Below, piece by piece: positions 47,576-60,054 of a stretch of 60,236 nt of DNA (position 1 is the first letter of the stretch; every line of letters begins with the position of its first letter). This stretch comes from Bdellovibrionales bacterium (GTDB lineage Bacteria > Bdellovibrionota > Bdellovibrionia > Bdellovibrionales > DASUEL01). The notes under the pieces were generated by a model. The model worked only from the letters and a program-made list of their open reading frames with translations. It made no database searches and had not been told where the DNA came from. The stretch lies in the NCBI GenBank assembly GCA_050250255.1, contig JBFWOZ010000015.1, positions 1-60,236 on the forward strand. The letters are read 5' to 3'. The position numbers and the translations under genes were made by a program.

Positions 47576-48895
47576 TTAATCCGATTTACCAGTTCTCAAC
47601 CATTGTAAGTACTGTCTGATTTTTTTTTCAAAGCCTATTTCGGTGGGTTCATAAAATACTTCGTCTTTAATTTCTTTAGGGAGATAGTCTTGAGTCACAT
47701 ATCCTCGAGAATAATCATGAGAATATTTGTACTCTTCGTCGGCCTTAACGGGATCGGAAGACCGCAAGTGATGAGGAACCGGAAGGTGTTGCGTGGTCTT
47801 CACTCTTTCTTGAGCGGCACGAAGCGCCATGTAAGAACGGTTCGATTTGGGGGCTGAAGCTAAATAAGTGACAGCCTGAGCCAAGCTAATGGCCCCTTCT
47901 GGAAGACCGATCATTTGTACCGCTTGAGCTGCGGCAACCGCAACTTCTAACGCTTTCGGATCTGCGTTTCCAATATCCTCGGAAGCTAAAATAATTAATC
48001 GACGAGCAATAAAAAGCGGATCTTCTCCACCCTCTAACATGCGCGCAAGATAATATACGCCCGCATCGGGTGAAGAACCGCGAATGCTTTTAATAAAAGC
48101 AGAAATTGTGTCGTAATGAGCTGAGCCTTTTTTATCGTAATAAAGTGGTGCACTTTCAAAAAGAGTTTTTAATTCTTGATCTGTGAGAGGATGTCTGAGG
48201 TCTTCGCTTTTTAGATGAAAAATCAAAGATTCCATTAAATTTAACAGACGACGAGCGTCCCCTGAAGAAATGAGGATTAACAGATCGAACGCTTCTGACG
48301 AAAGAGCTTCTTCCTGTTTTAAATTGGCATGCTGAAGGGCCCTCGTAATCAAGGCCTTTAAAGATTTTTCTCCGTGAGGTTTAAAAACAATCAACTGCGT
48401 GCGACTTAAGAGAGCCGAAACCAGAGCGTGACTAGGATTTTCCGTGGTCGCGCCGATCAGCGTGAAATCTCCAGCCTCTACAAACGGTAAAAGGACATCC
48501 TGCTGTGCGCGATTCAATCGATGGATTTCATCGATAAAAACGAGAGTTTTCTCTCCCCAAGCAATTCGCCGTTGTCTTGCGACCTCTCCCAATTCACGAA
48601 TGACTTTCGCACCGGTTTCAACGGCGTTTAATCGATGAACGTGTGATTTGTGCTGACGAATGAGGATGTGAGCGAGAGTGGTCTTTCCTGAACCAGGAGG
48701 ACCCCATAAAATAAGGCTCGGGTATTCTCCCCGCTTGATCTGTTCAAAGAGAGGTTTGTTTCTTAAAAAAATAGGATCTAAACCGAGGAACTCTTCAAAA
48801 CTTTGAGGGCGTAAGAGTTCCGCCAGTGGCTGAGCCCCTGTAGACGCCGAAGGTTCTGGAGTGTGTTCTGGTTTTCCAAAAGAAAATAAATCCAT
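47576..48895 (-). CDS. rarA: replication-associated recombination protein A (MgsA)
   Basis: PLAELLRP, GPPGSGKTT, FIDEIHR, ATTENP, HYDTISAFIKSIRGS, ASEDIG. Confidence 0.96.
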   Translation of the reverse strand: MDLFSFGKPEHTPEPSASTGAQPLAELLRPQSFEEFLGLDPIFLRNKPLFEQIKRGEYPSLILWGPPGSGKTTLAHILIRQHKSHVHRLNAVETGAKVIRELGEVARQRRIAWGEKTLVFIDEIHRLNRAQQDVLLPFVEAGDFTLIGATTENPSHALVSALLSRTQLIVFKPHGEKSLKALITRALQHANLKQEEALSSEAFDLLILISSGDARRLLNLMESLIFHLKSEDLRHPLTDQELKTLFESAPLYYDKKGSAHYDTISAFIKSIRGSSPDAGVYYLARMLEGGEDPLFIARRLIILASEDIGNADPKALEVAVAAAQAVQMIGLPEGAISLAQAVTYLASAPKSNRSYMALRAAQERVKTTQHLPVPHHLRSSDPVKADEEYKYSHDYSRGYVTQDYLPKEIKDEVFYEPTEIGFEKKIRQYLQWLRTGKSD

Positions 48896-48922: not shown

Positions 48923-49495
48923 TTACTCTGGGTAATAATAAAGTGTGATCTTTGATGTGCCATGAAAAGCGCGGCCAGTTTCTTGGCCCACTCCGTTAAT
49001 GGTTGCGGTGCCTGTTGCCAAAAAATTCGCTTTATTATTGGCCGCCGTGAGGCCAGTACAAGCAAAGCCTGTCGCACATGACTGATGCTCGTATCCATTG
49101 GGACCACTTTTTCCATAGAGTTTTCCATCTTTTGTGGCAACCCCATCAACTAACCTGGTCTCGTCAGGAAAAAGCTCTTCTAGAGCATCGGAATCAATCG
49201 TACAAAAAGCACCGTTTGGAAAGTTGTCAGACTTTGGAAACTCTACTTTAATGTTTGTGAGTTGAAGAATTTCACTTTGTTTCCAAATGATGCAAGGATT
49301 GCAAACTTTCATTCCGGGACCCGTGATTTCTTCTTCATCTGGAAGGGTCGCGCCACAAACCTCCGTCGATGTTCCGTAAAAAACAGAAGTGGTCGACTTT
49401 GGAATAAAAAGTTGAAGCGGTGGCTCTACACTACATTGAGCGGTTACCAACGCCAAACCAATGAGAAAGGAAATACGAAGCATCCTGCTTTTCAT
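48923..49495 (-). CDS. Cys-rich hypothetical lipoprotein coupled to pilQ
   Basis: Lipobox-like LVTAQC; 6 further Cys; start overlaps the pilQ stop. Confidence 0.7.
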   Translation of the reverse strand: MKSRMLRISFLIGLALVTAQCSVEPPLQLFIPKSTTSVFYGTSTEVCGATLPDEEEITGPGMKVCNPCIIWKQSEILQLTNIKVEFPKSDNFPNGAFCTIDSDALEELFPDETRLVDGVATKDGKLYGKSGPNGYEHQSCATGFACTGLTAANNKANFLATGTATINGVGQETGRAFHGTSKITLYYYPE

Positions 49496-52817: not shown

Positions 52818-53437
52818 TATAAGTTCTCCATCGAAGCTGAGACATTAAAAGATTTTACTACTCCATCAGCACTGCGTGATTGCTCTGATGATATGAGTAC
52901 CACCTGCATAAAATAAATATTTTCTTCCAACCCTTGCATAAGTGCCGAAATATCTGTGTCTTCAATGGCTTTTCCCTGAAGATCAATTTTCTTATCGTTG
53001 AGAACTAACCGCGTAAGCCACGCTTTCGTCGGCATAATATTTTGAATGGCATCCAATGCTTTTACATTTCTTAACCGAGCCTTAGAAAGTTCCTTAATTG
53101 TAGACACACGTTGTTCAAGCTGAGTCTTGTCCGCTTTAAATCTCTCAACCTTGTCTACTTCCACTTTTTTGGATTTAAGCTCTGCGGACACACGCTCCAA
53201 ATTCCTTCGAACATCTTCGACTTGGTTTTGTTTTTTCCCAACTTCGGTTTCTTGATATCCGTAAAGAAACATCACTGGCAAAAAGAGGAACATAAACTTT
53301 AAAAGCACATCCCCCATTCCACCTTCCGTGTCGGTGGGACTGATGAGCGTAGTACCTAAATTACTAATCGCCGACTTTGCACTTTCCGCAGCGCCAACAC
53401 TTGTTCCACCACCGCCGAGGAGATTAATACGAATCAT
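52817..53437 (-). CDS. pilN: type IV pilus assembly protein PilN
   Basis: MIRINLL N-terminal motif, TM, coiled coil, AWLT. Confidence 0.92.
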   Translation of the reverse strand: MIRINLLGGGGTSVGAAESAKSAISNLGTTLISPTDTEGGMGDVLLKFMFLFLPVMFLYGYQETEVGKKQNQVEDVRRNLERVSAELKSKKVEVDKVERFKADKTQLEQRVSTIKELSKARLRNVKALDAIQNIMPTKAWLTRLVLNDKKIDLQGKAIEDTDISALMQGLEENIYFMQVVLISSEQSRSADGVVKSFNVSASMENL

Positions 53438-54495
53438 TTATCCCCCGGCTTTCTCATGGCGAGCCCCATGCTCGTTGGTATGATCGCGGCAATCTGAGAT
53501 ATAAACTCAGGGGAGAACTTTTTCGTGTCATACTTCATGTTTACAAATGGATTCATAAATTCCACAGGCAACTGCAAGGATTGAGAGAGCGCTTCCATGA
53601 GTCCTGGCGTTGCGCCCGCACCACCACAAAGGAAGATTTTTTTTATTGGTGTGTCGGTACCAGTCGCAGAATAAAAATCTAAAGTTCGACGGATTTCTTC
53701 ACACACAGATTCGTGCGTGGCCTGCAGAACGTTCTGCACCTCTTGAGGGGTTTCCTGACCACTTGCTGCTGAAAGTTTTAAATTTTCGGCTTCTTCGAAA
53801 GTGATACTCATGTAGCGGCTGATTTCAAGTGTGTAGTTCATCCCGCCCACAGGCACATCTCGGCAGAACAGAACCTCTCCACTTTCAACGACGACAAAGT
53901 TCGTAAAACCCGCGCCGATATTCAAGATGCAAGCGGTGTAATCGATGTTCTTGCCGTAGTTGTGGAAAAAAGTATTGGCCAAAGCAAAGGCGCTGACGTC
54001 CAAAATTGTGCAGTGTCTCTCTGCACTCTCCACAACTTCTGCAAATTTGAAAATGAAATCTTTTTTTGCTGCCACGAGCAGAATATCCATGATTTCTGGA
54101 TTTGGATTAGGGCGATTGAAAATATGGTAATCCAGATTGATTTCATTGATATCAAAAGGAATGTACTGCTCGGCTTCCCAGCGAATTTGTTCTTCAATGA
54201 GTTTCGCTTCCATTTTTGGCAAAGAGATTTTTTTAATAATAACGGCAGTACCCCAAATACCTGTCACAACATTTTTTCTTTTGGATTGAATTTCATCAAG
54301 CACGGCACGCACCGATTGTGTGAGAGAAACCGTATCTAGAATCTCGCCACCCGCAATGGCGTTAGGCGGAGTGGGCACAATACTAAATGCGGTCAAAGTG
54401 GTTCCGCTACGAGCTACATTGAGCTCGGCCACTTTGATCGTACTGGTGCCGATATCGAGGCCCAATATTTTTTTTGCCGAAAAAAACGAGAACAT
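53434..54495 (-). CDS. pilM: type IV pilus assembly ATPase-like protein PilM
   Basis: LGLDIGTSTIK, EAEQYIPF, LLVAAKK, LCGGAG, NPF, GLAMR. Confidence 0.95.
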   Translation of the reverse strand: MFSFFSAKKILGLDIGTSTIKVAELNVARSGTTLTAFSIVPTPPNAIAGGEILDTVSLTQSVRAVLDEIQSKRKNVVTGIWGTAVIIKKISLPKMEAKLIEEQIRWEAEQYIPFDINEINLDYHIFNRPNPNPEIMDILLVAAKKDFIFKFAEVVESAERHCTILDVSAFALANTFFHNYGKNIDYTACILNIGAGFTNFVVVESGEVLFCRDVPVGGMNYTLEISRYMSITFEEAENLKLSAASGQETPQEVQNVLQATHESVCEEIRRTLDFYSATGTDTPIKKIFLCGGAGATPGLMEALSQSLQLPVEFMNPFVNMKYDTKKFSPEFISQIAAIIPTSMGLAMRKPGDK

Positions 54496-54669
54496 AAATT
54501 GTTACCCTCAGTGCTTCTTTGCACATCAACACGTAACTAGCGAATTATATTAAATTAAATCGCCGCTAGGCAAAAATGTCCACTCTATTCACTTTGTCCA
54601 GACTGGACCTTTGGAGAGGTTTAGATGTGGCGAATTGATCATACCTCTCGCGGCACCGATGAGAAGAGC

Positions 54670-56676
54670 ATGAAACTCTTAGCTACGATGAGCCTATTTT
54701 TTTATCTCAACAGTCATGCTGATACATTAACTTATCAGAAAGATGCCGGATTTCGAGTTTCTGAGTGGCTGAGTGGCCAAGAGTGTACAGGGCAATTCAA
54801 TACGTCTTGGGAGCCTCCTTCAGCTGTCACATGTTCTACTCAAAAACTTTCTGATCATGCTCAAAAAATAAGCAAAGTGAGCGAGCAAGCCCTAGAAAAC
54901 TACGAACAGGGAATATTTTTAGAGATTCATAAGCAGCAAGTGGATGAATCAAAATGTGCTGAATTGTTCCTGGAACAATTAGACCAAAGCTTGCACGTAC
55001 CTTACAAAAATGCTTTTGAAAAAGCTCTTTATCATATTCAAAATCCCGTAAAACCCAATTCAAAATCTCAAGCGTTTCAAGCGCAGGAGCAAATACTTAC
55101 TAAAGTTCATAAAAGTCTAGCAGTTATTAGAGCACTCCGAACGGAGCAAGAAAAAGTAGAAGCACAGTTGAAAACGACAAAGTTTATGGCCGCTCGTAGT
55201 TTTATAAAAGAACCAGATCAAGCCGAATCCTACCTCGCAACGCTTAAAAGTGCCGAGATTCTCGAGTTTCAAAAAAACATCTGGAGCGGCAACGACCCAT
55301 TGATGAAAGAATTTGCCGAAAAATATTTGTCGAAGAATCTTCCGTTCAAAGATTTTCTGTCTCAAACCACAGATCCTCGCAATCGTTTTTCTTTTCAAGC
55401 GCTCGTAGTTGCTCCAATGCGTGATAAAAATCGTCAAAGGCTAGAAGAGCTCAGCAAAGTTAGAGGGAAAATACCAGAAACTTTAAAGAAAGATTTTGTG
55501 CAATCGGGCGCATCAATAATGTATCTCAACTCCAATTCTAATAAGAATAAAGCTCAAAGTAGCGAAATAGCCTGCTACCTTGAGGGACGCTATGGATCCG
55601 GTCGCGACTTAGTGAAGGTTGTTTACGGAGCCGCTGCAGGAGCTGCCGGAATGGGTTCGATGATTGCCTTTTCAACGGGCCTACCGGTGGTAGGCGTCGC
55701 GCTCACTTTGGGATCTGCCTACCTAGGATCGCAGATAACAGAATCATGTGGTGAACGTATATACGTATCCTCTGGCCTAACTCAACCCATCTGCGAGCAG
55801 TTAAAAAGTAAGTTCGACTCACAAAACTTTGCTCAAGTGGTGAGTAAAACTTTGGATGGCCATTCGAGCTGCCTAGAAGCCACTCTTGAAGTCGCTGCCG
55901 CCCTTCCACCTCTCAAGCTTGGCAGTGTAAAAGGAGCGACTCAATTGGGTCACACCGTTCGAGAGGTAGCCAAAACAGTAAATGAAGCCGAGAAGACGCA
56001 ATCTAAAATATTAAAAATCACCGAAGTCAGGCACCTGATGGATTCCGCTCGAAATCAATGGGAGAAAACATTATTCAGTACCGCTTACCGCACGGCCTCT
56101 TCGCAAAAAAATCCTGTAATTCAACTTGTAGGAAATAACCTTGAAGAATTAAATCGTATTCGCGCAAAAGAATTTTATCGTGATGTAAAGGAAGTTCTCT
56201 TACTTGCAGAAGATGCAGGTACAGACGTCGGTGGATATCGACTCGCAAAAGAAATGCCCAACATCAAAATAACCGCAACGGATATTAAATATTCCGATGA
56301 AGTTTTTCCTGAAGCAAAGAATTTTGTGAAAATGAAAATGGACAATTCTAAGCCATTTCCTTTTCCAAGTAATCATTTTGATAAAGTGATTATGCATTCG
56401 GGAACTTGCTGGTGCGGAGCCGGGTCCGCTTCGTGTGGAGGTATTGGCAAAACACCCGAGTGTATCCAATCTTTTTTTAGAGAAGCGGCGCGAGTCCTCA
56501 ACAAAGGAAATCCTCACGCTGAAGTCACTCTGATAGGCGAGCACGGACGTGCCAATTCCGATTTCTTAAAAGCGGCAGCCCAAGCCTTTGCTGATGAAGG
56601 ACAGGTTCAAGTCACAATTGTAGAGGACGGATTCGGCCTCGTTCAAAGTCTACGCTTCACTCCGCGCGCACATTAA
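54670..56676 (+). CDS. secreted multidomain protein with C-terminal class I SAM-methyltransferase-like domain
   Basis: Signal peptide (SHA-D) from ATG 54670; Gly/Ala hydrophobic segment; ITATDI, FPFPSNHFDKVI, FFREAARVL motifs. Confidence 0.75.
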   Translation: MKLLATMSLFFYLNSHADTLTYQKDAGFRVSEWLSGQECTGQFNTSWEPPSAVTCSTQKLSDHAQKISKVSEQALENYEQGIFLEIHKQQVDESKCAELFLEQLDQSLHVPYKNAFEKALYHIQNPVKPNSKSQAFQAQEQILTKVHKSLAVIRALRTEQEKVEAQLKTTKFMAARSFIKEPDQAESYLATLKSAEILEFQKNIWSGNDPLMKEFAEKYLSKNLPFKDFLSQTTDPRNRFSFQALVVAPMRDKNRQRLEELSKVRGKIPETLKKDFVQSGASIMYLNSNSNKNKAQSSEIACYLEGRYGSGRDLVKVVYGAAAGAAGMGSMIAFSTGLPVVGVALTLGSAYLGSQITESCGERIYVSSGLTQPICEQLKSKFDSQNFAQVVSKTLDGHSSCLEATLEVAAALPPLKLGSVKGATQLGHTVREVAKTVNEAEKTQSKILKITEVRHLMDSARNQWEKTLFSTAYRTASSQKNPVIQLVGNNLEELNRIRAKEFYRDVKEVLLLAEDAGTDVGGYRLAKEMPNIKITATDIKYSDEVFPEAKNFVKMKMDNSKPFPFPSNHFDKVIMHSGTCWCGAGSASCGGIGKTPECIQSFFREAARVLNKGNPHAEVTLIGEHGRANSDFLKAAAQAFADEGQVQVTIVEDGFGLVQSLRFTPRAH

Positions 56677-56677
56677 C

Positions 56678-57457
56678 TTACAGGGATGGTAAGAAGAGCG
56701 AGATGTACCAGTTGGCCAGCTGGTCGCCACCAAAGATGTAAATGTAGGCACCCAAAACAATGAAAGGCCCAAAAGGAAGTGAGCTTTTCATATTTCCACC
56801 ACGAGCAATCAAGATCAAACCGGCCACAGTACCTACTAGACTTGAAGACAAAATAATAAATGGAATAGCTTTCCACCCCAAGTAAGCACCAAGCCATGCT
56901 AGCAGCTTGATATCTCCACCACCCATGCCATCCTCTTTACGAATCACAAAATAAATATAGGCGATGAGCCAGAGAAAACCTCCGCCCATTAGGAAGCCAA
57001 GAAAAGCGTCCATGAATTCCCGTTCAGGATTTAAAGCGGCACCTAAAAGCCCCAAGACAATTCCCGACAAACTAAAAACATCAGGAATAATTCGGTGATC
57101 TAAATCAATGAATGAAATCGTCACAAGACCAAATGTCAAAATGCAGTATTCAAGCAATAGCCATGACCAACCTACATGCCAATAAAGCAAAAGAAATAAA
57201 AAACCCATAAGGAATTCAACGAACGGGTAACGTATAGAAAAAGGTGCCCGGCACTGGCGGCACTTTCCTCTGAGAAAAAGCCAAGAGAAAATAGGGATAT
57301 TGTCGTACATCGCAATCATTTTTTTACATGAGTAACAGTGACTTCGTGGCGTCACCACGCTGAGTTCTTGCGGTAGGCGGTAGATAATGACGTTCGCGAA
57401 ACTTCCCAGCAGGCTTCCAAAAATAAAAAGCCCGATGGCTATAAAGTCTAATGGCAT
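56678..57457 (-). CDS. pilD: prepilin peptidase/N-methyltransferase
   Basis: GSFANVIIYRLP, SHCxxC…CxxC, IDLD, GMGGGDIKL, PFGPF; start ATG 57457. Confidence 0.96.
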   Translation of the reverse strand: MPLDFIAIGLFIFGSLLGSFANVIIYRLPQELSVVTPRSHCYSCKKMIAMYDNIPIFSWLFLRGKCRQCRAPFSIRYPFVEFLMGFLFLLLYWHVGWSWLLLEYCILTFGLVTISFIDLDHRIIPDVFSLSGIVLGLLGAALNPEREFMDAFLGFLMGGGFLWLIAYIYFVIRKEDGMGGGDIKLLAWLGAYLGWKAIPFIILSSSLVGTVAGLILIARGGNMKSSLPFGPFIVLGAYIYIFGGDQLANWYISLFLPSL

Positions 57458-57458
57458 G

Positions 57459-58226
57459 TCAGACAAAATCTCTTCTCCGGAATACAATAATACCAACGAT
57501 GAGAAAAAAAGCAGACCAGCTTAAGCCATATACACTCGCCTCCACCAACACTGAAGCGGAGATGTTCTCGGAATAAGTGACGTAAGCACGCCAATTAAAT
57601 CTTTCGAGATTCGGTACGAGATATTGTGCCAATTGACTAAATAATTTAAAACTTTCGGAGCCACTTTTTTGCGCAAAAAAATTGAGATCCCCTACCCAAT
57701 GACCAATCAAAAAAAGTCCCAGTGTGAAGGTGACCGCCATAACAGAACTGGTGAAAATACCAAAAAACAAAGTGATCGAGAGAAGAATCATGCTCTCTAA
57801 AATTGTGCCCCAAAGTACCGCCGGCAAATTCCAAGACAGCGTAAATTCCATCTGGCTAAGAATAAGATATAAAATGAAAAATAAGGCCGTAAGCACCGTA
57901 AGAAGAACAAAGATCATTCCCAGAAACTTACCAAGAATAAACTCTTTTCTGGTCACGGCGTGCGCAAGCAGCGTCATGATTGTTCTTTTATCTAATTCGC
58001 GTGCTACTAGAGTGCTGCCCACAAAAATGGAAAGCAAAACTGCACTCATATGAATTCCCATCAAACCGTAATCAATAGATATTCTCGTTTGCTCTGCATA
58101 ACTCAATTGTCCTAAGGCCATGCTGAGCCCAATTAAAATCACCGCAAACACAACGAGGCCGTACAAAATACGATCTCGAATAATTTCGCGATAAGTGTTT
58201 TTGGCAATGAGCACGATGGCTTTCAT
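57459..58226 (-). CDS. pilI: ABC transporter permease (PilI-like)
   Basis: IAKNTYREIIRDRILY, RELDKRT, FILGKFLG, FRRRDF end; position before pilD. Confidence 0.8.
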   Translation of the reverse strand: MKAIVLIAKNTYREIIRDRILYGLVVFAVILIGLSMALGQLSYAEQTRISIDYGLMGIHMSAVLLSIFVGSTLVARELDKRTIMTLLAHAVTRKEFILGKFLGMIFVLLTVLTALFFILYLILSQMEFTLSWNLPAVLWGTILESMILLSITLFFGIFTSSVMAVTFTLGLFLIGHWVGDLNFFAQKSGSESFKLFSQLAQYLVPNLERFNWRAYVTYSENISASVLVEASVYGLSWSAFFLIVGIIVFRRRDFV

Positions 58227-59104
58227 AAAGAACCATCCTGAGAAATGATCTTCGCAAATGCGGACTCTAAGGACGGTCTTTCGGCTTTCACTTCTTGAAT
58301 GAGACCTTTTTGACTTCTTACACGATCGATCGCCTCTTGAAGCTCTCGATCAGAATGAAACACCTGAGTGACGGGATGATCTTTCTCTACATACGTCAGC
58401 CGAAAACCTGACTGCAGGCTATGCAACAATTTTTGTGTTGAACCGTTATAAGCAAGCTCACCCTGACGAATGATGACCAGATCATCACAAAGAGTTTCCG
58501 CATCGTGCAAAAGATGACTGCTAAAAAAAACCGCCGAGCCCTTTTGTGCGGTCTCGCGAATGATTTGCGCCATTTCCATGCGACCATCGGGATCCATTCC
58601 CGCAACTGGCTCATCGAGAATTACGAGTTGTGGCTCGTGAATCAAAGCCTGAGCTAGACCTACTCGCTGTAACATTCCTTTTGAGTACGTACGAAGTGCG
58701 CGATCACTGGCATGCTCAAGACGCACACGCTTTAAAAGCATGCGAATCTGCTGATCCAGGTCTGCTCGCTTTAATCTTGTGGAAAGTTCTCCGTAAAATC
58801 TTAAGAACTCGTAGCCTGTTAAATATTCGTAAAAATACGGACGTTCAGGTAAAAAACCGATTTTCTCGCAGAGACTAGGAGTCAGTGGTCCTTGTTCGAA
58901 AAAATGAATTTTCCCGGAATCAGGGATGGAGAGATTTAAAAGACACTTTAGGGTTGTGGTTTTACCAGCGCCGTTGCTACCAAGAAAGCCAGTGATTTTT
59001 CCCGCTTCAACTTGAAAGCTTAAGCCCTTCAAAACAGGGTGACGTCTTTTAAAAAAACCTTTGCGATAAGATTTCTTTAAGTCCTCAACTTGGATGACCT
59101 TCAT
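58223..59104 (-). CDS. pilH: ABC transporter ATP-binding protein (PilH-like)
   Basis: GSNGAGKTT, GFLPERPYFYEYL, YSKGMLQR, LDEP, SSH. Confidence 0.8.
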   Translation of the reverse strand: MKVIQVEDLKKSYRKGFFKRRHPVLKGLSFQVEAGKITGFLGSNGAGKTTTLKCLLNLSIPDSGKIHFFEQGPLTPSLCEKIGFLPERPYFYEYLTGYEFLRFYGELSTRLKRADLDQQIRMLLKRVRLEHASDRALRTYSKGMLQRVGLAQALIHEPQLVILDEPVAGMDPDGRMEMAQIIRETAQKGSAVFFSSHLLHDAETLCDDLVIIRQGELAYNGSTQKLLHSLQSGFRLTYVEKDHPVTQVFHSDRELQEAIDRVRSQKGLIQEVKAERPSLESAFAKIISQDGSL

Positions 59105-60000
59105 GGCTCCAACTTTAAGTCCATCTCGCGGACCATTTCCCTCACAGGCTCATATTGTTTTGTTGTTGCAAGCTTCACTTCTTGAACACCAAGAAGTTGT
59201 AGAAGTTTATTTTCGCCAGACATACCAAGGTCAATGAGAGCGAACATCACATCGTGAGTCAGACGAGGATATTTATCGTAAAAATCTTGTCTCACGCAAA
59301 ACGGATCATTAGGAATGGGTTCACTTACCCATAAGATGCGGGCAGTTCCAGGCTTTCCAGAATACTGCGTCCACGCACTACTCAAACCTTTTCGATCATC
59401 TGAAAAAACCGTGGCCGCATCTACTTCACCTTTTACAAGAGCCTTGATCGCCGCTTGATGATTCCCGGCGTAAATGATGGATTTAAAGTAGGACTTGGGG
59501 TCAATTTTCGATTTTTTAAACATGACCTGCGGATAGAGATAGCCACTTGTAGATTTCTCATCAACAAAGGCGATGCGTTTTCCTTTTAAATCCTTAATCG
59601 ACTTAATTTTAGATTTTGGATCTACAATGAGAACGGAGTAATAAAATGGCTCTTTCCAAACCTTTTTTAAAAGAACTTTTGCTTGTGCTTGTTTTTCCGC
59701 AAAGACAAATGTCATTGCTGTATAGAAAGCAAAATCAATTTCCTTTTTCTTCATGTCTTCAATGAGATCAGGATATTTCGGTGGCACTCGTACTTCCACC
59801 GGCACACCAACCCGAGACTCAATGAGTTTAGCGAGCTGTAAAGCCGATTCTCGTTGTTTGTCAGGATTTTCTCCAGGTATAAATCCTATCCGGATTTTTT
59901 TAGGCTGTGTTTCAGCGCGGCCTTGGTCTAGGCCGAAAAAGAACACACTAAGGAGAATGAAAGTAGTTTTTAGAAAAGAAATCTTTAACGAATGTTGCAT
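59101..60000 (-). CDS. PhnD/SsuA-type phosphate/phosphonate substrate-binding protein
   Basis: Signal peptide; IRIGFIP, AFVDEKSTSGYLYP, GNH, IPND motifs; start ATG 60000 after GGGGGG; TGA overlaps the pilH ATG. Confidence 0.88.
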   Translation of the reverse strand: MQHSLKISFLKTTFILLSVFFFGLDQGRAETQPKKIRIGFIPGENPDKQRESALQLAKLIESRVGVPVEVRVPPKYPDLIEDMKKKEIDFAFYTAMTFVFAEKQAQAKVLLKKVWKEPFYYSVLIVDPKSKIKSIKDLKGKRIAFVDEKSTSGYLYPQVMFKKSKIDPKSYFKSIIYAGNHQAAIKALVKGEVDAATVFSDDRKGLSSAWTQYSGKPGTARILWVSEPIPNDPFCVRQDFYDKYPRLTHDVMFALIDLGMSGENKLLQLLGVQEVKLATTKQYEPVREMVREMDLKLEP

Positions 60001-60054
60001 GATATTCCCCCCTTGGGGATCCACTTTCATTCGATCATGATTTCTAAATAACCG

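Follow-up and report, generated by a model that had tools for sequence, protein, structure and literature searches.

Effector-like proteins with a shared helical module and exchangeable C-terminal tips in Bdellovibrionota, including one with a methyltransferase-fold tip encoded between pilD and pilM

The window analyzed here, that is, the whole stretch of 60,236 nucleotides from a Bdellovibrionales bacterium (GCA_050250255.1, contig JBFWOZ010000015.1), encodes between pilD and pilM a member of a modular protein family, in which a conserved N-terminal module with a predicted signal peptide is joined to exchangeable C-terminal tips. The tip of this member is predicted to adopt a class I methyltransferase fold; the family lacks a conserved immunity gene or cassette array, and the gene is inserted at an otherwise conserved pilD-pilM junction. 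Taken as a whole, the account that we regard as reasonably probable is that an exported helical module inserts its hairpin in a target membrane and passes the tip inside. The gene and the parts of its product upstream of the tip are as follows.

54670..56676, + strand: effector-like gene, 668 aa (683 aa from ATG 54625), by ORF reading; contiguous in the contig of run X1
54670..54720, + strand: predicted Sec signal peptide, aa 1-17, cleavage likely after A17, by a hydropathy heuristic and alignment
54721..55929, + strand: conserved all-helical family module, aa 18-420, with seven Cys, by alignment and AF2
55627..55728, + strand: Gly/Ala-rich, marginally hydrophobic hairpin, aa 320-353, between C302 and C360, by hydropathy
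55873..55932, + strand: tail-exchange point, formed by a helix beyond the final conserved Cys and a basic stretch, by the family charge profile and the end of paralog homology
55933..56124, + strand: linker of ~65 aa between module and tip, by sequence; it lies outside both alignments A5 and A6

The uninterrupted plus-strand ORF ends with a stop at 56676 and can be read from ATG 54670 or from the in-frame ATG 54625, the latter being the public gene call. A single-sequence search of 5.8 billion proteins returned the effector-like protein itself only, and the family emerged through whole-genome and profile searches alone. In a six-frame search of 201 genomes, nine non-self matches were obtained, four to the N-terminal half, four to the tip and one false (the match at L009, which is purE itself and was dropped); the four N-half matches already differed in their C-termini. 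A five-row module profile matched 49 of 384 genomes of the order, the source genome included. With a 52-row profile, matches were obtained in 43 of 401 genomes of the phylum, of which 10 lie outside the order; a further 10 of the 43 are partial matches that come from a different protein and are excluded from all family counts. Against 1.84 billion representatives, the profile retrieved 537 clusters at E<=1e-3, 437 at 1e-10 and 241 at 1e-30, such that the module can serve as a marker domain with which over 500 clusters of putative effectors are retrieved, the tips being untyped in most. A profile built from the other 149 listed representatives still finds the effector-like protein in its genome at E 1.6e-14 (next match, 0.28), and its membership is therefore not circular. 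The expectation of the first-pass annotation that a search with the N-terminal part would return paralogs with different C-termini was borne out by relatives in the phylum and failed for this genome, in which tblastn, phmmer and four profiles recovered no paralog.

Named records with relatives are from Bdellovibrio sp. and Bdellovibrionales. Some named Bdellovibrio genomes with complete chromosomes encode members with a kinase tip, so that genetics may be feasible. The family is patchy (e.g., 13 of 44 genomes of one genus with profile A1) and hence is no universal predation factor. In a quick tree the effector-like protein forms a long branch (2.94), with long branches throughout and a placement that is not reliable. 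The family is apparently undescribed: no paper describing it was found in the full-text literature, a corpus outside which most subscription journals and supplements lie; supplements from the Aravind group could list such architectures. The Bdellovibrio passages of PMC3239186, 10.1101/2025.01.14.632903 and PMC11656739 concern other proteins. A search of PHROGs gave no match, and PADLOC gave none for the effector-like protein and one weak match on a relative. The excluded partial matches belong to a conserved protein of ~520-560 aa from one genus (L132-L138; e.g., L132:3757-5322, L136:3269-4879) with a signal-peptide-like start. The part of the module from the Cys to the hairpin is all that it has in common with the family (hhalign probability 94.6, E 6.7e-8, 111 columns), and its helical tail is, unlike those of the family, fixed; the protein may be a relative of the delivery module that belongs to the core genome.

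The module lies at the N-terminus, with a median of 21 aa ahead of it among the representatives. The candidate signal peptide has a heuristic 9-aa KD mean of 2.13; its A17/D18 aligns with an A/G column of the family, the putative cleavage site, and by the same kind of heuristic a signal-peptide-like h-region is present in 99 of the 108 family proteins having enough leader. Seven module Cys (C39, C55, C96, C302, C360, C375 and the C400/401 column) are 99-100% conserved in the family. An AF2 model of the module is all helix (pLDDT 76, low in the hairpin region), and neither Foldseek nor a VIA second look gave a significant match to its fold; comparisons with colicin, ClyA/Ahl/Yax and Tc domains gave no structural match above noise. 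No Pfam, NCBIfam or PHROG family covers the module, PDB sequence searches with the module and tip profiles gave nothing significant, and the ESM Atlas gave scores of 0.85-0.86 for a relative's module, which are leads only, and nothing usable for the whole protein.

The Gly/Ala hydrophobic hairpin reported earlier at 55627-55728 is indeed located there. Its best 19-aa Kyte-Doolittle mean is 1.63, and it contains the sole 19-aa windows above 1.0 in the protein. Across the family, the corresponding C4-C5 segment reaches a KD19 of at least 1.2 in 143 of 147 relatives, against 5 of 147 for the C1-C4 control helical region, and the hairpin core is uncharged and composed of Gly/Ala. The 57-aa C-to-C spacing in the effector-like protein is the family's shortest (median 80). 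We predict from these sequence features that the hairpin is a membrane-inserting element. PurE/AIRC matches at aa 315-345 were rejected as chance matches to this Gly/Ala segment. Beyond the last Cys, members of the family share a 15-aa uncharged stretch followed by K/R enrichment; in the effector-like protein this helix is too polar for a stable TM helix. The tails that follow contain 0.2% Cys, with 87 of 137 lacking any, and are mostly basic (pI >9 in 83 of 126; median pI 9.2); that of the effector-like protein, with a pI of 8.3 (7.1 for the last 150 aa) and four Cys, is less basic and richer in Cys than most. As a separate observation, 28 of 137 representative tails (P0018-P0166) have a Cys within their last 15 residues versus 4.1 expected, a count inflated by related rows; given the odd number of module Cys, seven, such a C-terminal Cys could provide a disulfide tether to the module in some members. 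The effector-like protein has no Cys in its last 15 residues.

Exchange of the tips is evident from clustering, as the tails of 64 genome members fall into 38 clusters and 138 representative tails, each 100 aa or longer, into 66; these sets share members, and their cluster counts should not be added. It is seen most directly in two paralogs of one genome (G047), which are 76% identical over aa 1-426 and unrelated beyond, with RamC_N in only one of the two: between the hairpin and a point ~30 aa beyond the last Cys, at which homology ends, they hardly differ at all. The proposal of a family with interchangeable C-termini is thereby upheld, and the opposite outcome, full-length homologs always carrying the same C-terminus, did not occur. 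Nor did the other two outcomes named as refuting in the first-pass annotation, the absence of a signal peptide, which we judged by a hydropathy heuristic and alignment, and a C-domain other than a Rossmann methyltransferase fold. Among the 149 listed representatives, Pfam recognizes 17 PI3/4-kinase/HipA-like, 3 Fic, 2 RamC_N and 1 ADP-ribosyltransferase tips, along with one amidoligase, one transglutaminase and one sub-threshold deiminase match, while 118 are without a Pfam match; among 51 genome members the corresponding counts are 14, 2, 2 and 1. Thus, a conserved N-terminal region is combined with diverse C-terminal domains, several of known toxin classes (Fic, ART, HipA/PI3K-like kinase and RamC_N), in a polymorphic architecture. 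The catalytic motifs of the Fic and kinase tips look intact by eye, and in other tails HExxH, papain-like, ParB-like or RNase-like motifs can be made out, again by eye only. A number of tails do not look enzymatic or are short, 9 of 147 having fewer than 100 aa.

Several smaller observations touch on these tails. Nine members (L048, L051, L054, L056, L058, L069, L070, L142 and L143) have in common a module of ~70-130 aa just past the swap point, with a motif like AHxxGxG...GNYT..Q...KA.IL..AG and no Pfam match, that occurs with unrelated tips. L146 (809 aa) and the ~600-aa members L076, L079, L080 and L081, which have only a 135-aa helical tail, carry different tails and all lie upstream of one 85-aa gene, 100% identical between L146 and L080; this suggests replacement at one locus. 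In the source genome itself, a standalone 292-aa protein (G000:C5:63159-64034, + strand), which begins with a signal-peptide-like segment and carries a Cys early in its sequence, is similar to the tip of P0122, a member of the family (E 6e-8), and tips may therefore also occur as free secreted proteins in this genome.

The tip of the effector-like protein comprises the following features.

56125..56673, + strand: class I SAM-methyltransferase-fold tip, aa 486-668, by Pfam, AF2 model, fold matches and a 22-row alignment
56194..56235, + strand: atypical motif I region, beta1 and the next loop, by the 22-row family alignment
56281..56346, + strand: acidic residue after beta2 (D538) and D558-N559, by the 22-row alignment
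56407..56436, + strand: Cys cluster C580-x-C582...C589 after beta4, by the 22-row alignment

The earlier description of this region as class I methyltransferase-like, with an atypical motif I AEDAGTDVGG and a Cys insert, agrees with what we find: the AF2 model (pLDDT 87.5) and the fold lists give class I SAM-dependent, seven-stranded Rossmann-like folds throughout, and both the motif I segment and the Cys insert (C580-x-C582...C589...C598) are present. Pfam Methyltransf_11 matches the tip at E 0.0014, under its curated cut-off, and is matched by only 2 of 5 seed members. The canonical motif I, D/E-x-G-x-G-x-G, is absent from the tip family; the family consensus is LFLSDGG, and the sequence here, LLLAEDAG, has lost one more Gly from a motif that is atypical in all 22 rows. 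D538 and N559 are at least 90% conserved in the 22 rows; we take D538 and D558-N559 to be the positions that bind the SAM ribose and adenine in class I enzymes. C580, C582 and C589 are invariant in 22 of 22 rows, C598 being present in the effector-like protein in addition, and the cluster is possibly a metal site or a set of disulfides. Relative to Methyltransf_11-type enzymes such as YcgJ (1xxl) and BH2331 (1vl5), the tip family differs in its noncanonical motif I and invariant post-beta4 Cys, lacks a substrate-cap domain and is apparently exported.

Most members of the tip's methyltransferase family are standalone proteins with a signal-peptide-like start (h-region in 12 of 14) and no hairpin module, and the tip family is thus independent of the module. 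No other fused copy was found among the 150 listed representatives, and none in a search for longer proteins that scored 7987 candidates, which is weak evidence. The closest tip homolog, at 35% identity, is in G013, where the gene runs off the contig end; that genome, 77% complete, has no module match. The standalone homologs (L086, L088, L089, L091-L094, P0004-P0017) mostly have a Cys within ~10 residues of the predicted cleavage site, often as C-x-x-L-F; a search of this genome for the tag “signal peptide + CxxL[FY]” gave 6 versus 2 of 353 (any Cys, 61 versus 33), which is no clear enrichment.

These features bear on whether the tip is a working enzyme. The foremost alternative retains the same secreted polymorphic family and holds that the tip is no working methyltransferase, the fold being degenerate or repurposed, for instance as a binder of an adenosyl ligand or a metal, as a SAM-consuming enzyme of another kind or as a decaying tip; it is compatible with the family-level reading, and we rate it as rather unlikely, if serious. 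The atypical motif I with its further lost Gly, the sub-threshold Methyltransf_11 match of the tip, the fact that only two of the five seed members match that model, and the single fused form all point in this direction, as does the apparent export of the standalone homologs to a compartment without SAM. Moreover, spermidine synthase and the hydroxylase RdmB are among the top fold matches, so that the fold leaves the chemistry unfixed. Against this, the ORF is intact, and the post-beta2 acid, the D/N pair, a PF..N.F motif and three post-beta4 Cys are kept between the tip and the standalone proteins at ~20-37% identity, which points to a kept ligand site. The earlier argument that the protein must be translocated since SAM is cytoplasmic is weakened by the exported-looking standalone homologs and the degenerate motif I. 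Used as the warhead of a polymorphic effector, a methyltransferase would bring an uncommon kind of toxin chemistry.

As had been noted from the locus, no immunity gene is evident: the downstream gene is the convergent pilD. More generally, among 58 members with enough flank, only 10 are followed on the same strand by an ORF of 70 aa or more whose start lies between -30 and +40 nt; three of these ORFs represent a single gene conserved within one genus, another is the continuation of a broken tip, and about two (at L141 and L048) are plausible as immunity genes. The L141 ORF (104 aa) has a 4-nt overlap, and those downstream of L048 and L054 (109-129 aa) are 41% identical. A comparison of the tails with 397,708 flank bases of 65 loci (flanks of ~6 kb) gave one match, which continues a broken tip, and there are therefore no cassette arrays nearby. 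Hence, two hallmarks that define classical polymorphic toxin systems are missing from the family as a whole, the downstream immunity gene and the cassette arrays. It fits instead the class of effectors described by Zhang et al. (2012; PMC3482391), in passages of which the absence of immunity genes marks effectors aimed at hosts and distant competitors.

The same absence bears on the identity of the target. That the family targets eukaryotes, i.e., grazing protists or hosts, or non-prey competitors would accord with the predominance of PI3/4-kinase-like domains among the typed tips and with a Fic tip that scores highest, though far under the cut-off, with the XopAC/AvrAC plant-effector model (E 8.7e-13). 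RamC_N, which we assume to be related to OspF-type lyases, counts in the same sense. However, the same kinase tips also match HipA_2, Fic and ART domains are common antibacterial toxins, and signal-peptide export alone accounts for the missing immunity genes, which would otherwise be typical of such effectors in the relevant passages of PMC3482391. Further, passages of PMC12428579 and PMC13689555 describe the lineage as known for Gram-negative prey. We accordingly think a eukaryotic or competitor target unlikely. A predatory lifestyle of this particular genome we infer from its order; parts of PMC11003981 indicate that secreted proteins of B. bacteriovorus suffice to kill prey, and the mechanisms and effectors of Bdellovibrio predation and their delivery are treated as open and poorly known in the sections of PMC12428579, PMC13689555 and PMC11003981 that deal with them.

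Taking a bacterial target as the preferred reading, we propose that the protein would be exported by Sec, that its module would fold through disulfides in the producer periplasm and that it would leave the cell either by type II secretion or at the predator-prey junction; jointly, these steps seem to us quite probable. In this genome, gspD scores above its cut-off, and TssC was not found. Quite probably, the protein acts on another cell and not on its producer. The target would likely be a prey bacterium, in whose inner membrane the Gly/Ala hairpin would insert, and the tail would then be transferred, possibly driven by the proton motive force on its basic, Cys-poor sequence; we place such hairpin-assisted crossing of the target's inner membrane slightly on the probable side. 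As the module fold has no match, this translocation role rests on hydropathy and analogy. Finally, the methyltransferase-fold tip would likely draw on SAM of the target cell and modify some essential molecule there. The first-pass annotation, whose architecture and family prediction hold, had likewise proposed a methyltransferase effector delivered to prey. Real methyl transfer by the tip, with a thiol activated at the Cys cluster as a possible acceptor, is suggested tentatively, at a little short of even confidence. Kinases, Fic and ART require ATP or NAD+. The signal peptide would keep the enzymes out of the producer cytoplasm, where SAM, ATP and NAD+ are, so that no immunity protein would be needed. 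Such a protein would represent a candidate route by which cytoplasmic-cofactor enzymes pass from the predator periplasm to the target cytoplasm without a T6SS.

A rather different arrangement would be that of an inner-membrane receptor-enzyme of the producer, in which a periplasmic disulfide sensor is followed by the hairpin and last helix as membrane-crossing elements and by a cytoplasmic enzyme, for signalling or abortive defence in the producer's own cytoplasm. It would supply SAM or ATP without translocation and require no immunity gene if the enzyme were held off, and the uncharged stretch followed by K/R residues after the last Cys is what the positive-inside rule predicts. However, on a translocon-insertion scale, the hairpin has a median score of 2.7 and the last helix one of 3.6 (7.05 in the effector-like protein), with none of 147 reaching <=0, while the best TM helices of the neighboring pilD, permease, PilO and PilN score better, at -2.8 to 1.6. 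These values fit a conditionally inserting soluble protein and argue against a receptor anchored in the producer membrane. The strong depletion of Cys in the tails, the standalone tip homologs with signal-peptide-like starts and the lack of a PADLOC match for the effector-like protein likewise speak against such a receptor, which we hold to be quite improbable.

Returning to the exported-effector reading, its components recall several known systems. In the relevant passages of PMC3482391, the immunity-less polymorphic effectors likewise combine a conserved N-terminus with exchangeable toxin-type C-termini, are exported by a signal peptide (Sec/T2SS; predicted here) and lack immunity genes and cassettes; the N-module of the present family, by contrast, matches no described domain. 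The first 300,000 of the 357,715 characters of that article, supplements apart, contain no mention of Bdellovibrio or of methyltransferase tips. The MafB proteins of Neisseria, as treated in sections of the same article, similarly have a lineage-restricted domain (MAFB-N) right after the signal peptide and polymorphic tips. The family differs from MafB in being without a MafA-like upstream partner, immunity gene or cassette array, has no DUF1020/MafB match in Pfam and possesses an internal Gly/Ala hairpin and seven Cys. The ABP toxins of Gram-positives pair an amphipathic helix with a basic enzyme and enter by the proton motive force, according to passages of PMC12582261; the ABP/BetaH diffusible toxins discussed there resemble the family in export, enzymatic tips and an amphipathic or hydrophobic helix beside a basic domain. 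BetaH, as outlined in the same passages, has a beta-sheet N-terminus and a co-encoded protease, whereas the family module is all-helical with no partner protease evident, and the family tails are less basic (median pI 9.2 versus about 10-11). With a tail pI of 8.3 and four Cys, the effector-like protein fits the ABP analogy less well than most of the family. T6SS effectors with glycine-zipper/TM translocation segments (Tde1) are also reported to place a Gly/Ala-rich, marginally hydrophobic hairpin beside enzymatic cargo, whereas the family has a predicted signal peptide and no T6SS adaptor. A hydrophobic hairpin beside enzymatic cargo is likewise found in colicin- and diphtheria-type toxins. 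The family is thus polymorphic-effector-like, yet it is neither a classical polymorphic toxin system nor MafB nor ABP; its novelty lies in a module that spans the lineage and has apparently not been described, together with a methyltransferase-fold tip of an unusual kind. A bolder and rather doubtful extension is that of an immunity-free, self-translocating platform dedicated to Bdellovibrionota, in which a disulfide-locked module of new fold would carry dozens of swappable enzymes from the periplasm through the inner membrane of the prey, among them the first methyltransferase warhead, and prey would be killed or reprogrammed by methylation at a Cys/metal-lined site. If true, roughly 50 untyped tip clusters would form a reservoir of new antibacterial enzyme activities.

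The genomic setting of the gene is defined by these neighbors.

56678..57496, - strand: pilD prepilin peptidase, convergent neighbor, by Pfam A24
53434..54495, - strand: pilM, divergent neighbor and first gene of pilMNOPQ, by Pfam PilM_2
59101-60030, - strand: phosphonate-binding-like (PhnD-like) gene
47576-48895, - strand: rarA

The minus-strand run consists of the PhnD-like gene, an ABC ATPase, a permease, pilD, pilMNOPQ, a small gene and rarA, and the effector-like gene, as the first-pass annotation had recognized, interrupts it as the sole long plus-strand ORF, with a single base between its stop and that of pilD at 56678. With a GC of 0.431 and a GC3 of 0.366, its composition is within the range of the neighbors (GC3 0.366-0.472), and it is therefore no compositional island. 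One 23.6-kb contig of run X1 covers 53799-59000 with 2 differences; X1 is possibly the source sample, so that this contig checks the assembly and is no independent occurrence. A joint 54189-56889 in X1, with 26-base sides only and probably from other organisms, was discarded. In 30 relatives searched, pilM was found in 29, and in 26 of these pilD lies directly upstream on the same strand (gaps of approximately 70-410 nt); two have other genes upstream, and in one the sequence ends 201 nt upstream. Because this adjacency is conserved, the gene is a lineage-specific insertion at the pilD-pilM junction, as the earlier placement between the two genes implied.

A functional part in the type IVa pilus locus, e.g., as pilus cargo or modifier, would suit the position between pilD and pilMNOPQ and the requirement of T4a pili for Bdellovibrio predation given in passages of PMC12428579, but the gene runs antisense to the operon, most relatives have pilD right next to pilM, and elsewhere in the family the neighboring genes differ from member to member and include no pil gene recognizable by eye, making such a part highly improbable and the pil location likely incidental.

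Promoter and terminator scans at the locus gave counts at chance level. A 10/12 sigma-70-like site at 54544-54573 (- strand), in the gap upstream of pilM, may be a retained pilM promoter; the total of such sites in that gap is at chance level. Right after pilQ, at 48923-49495 (- strand), lies a 190-aa Cys-rich lipoprotein-like ORF with no Pfam match. Directly upstream of pilD, the ABC ATPase and permease genes occupy 57459-59104 (- strand), an order that presumably recalls the pilH-pilI-pilD of Myxococcus.
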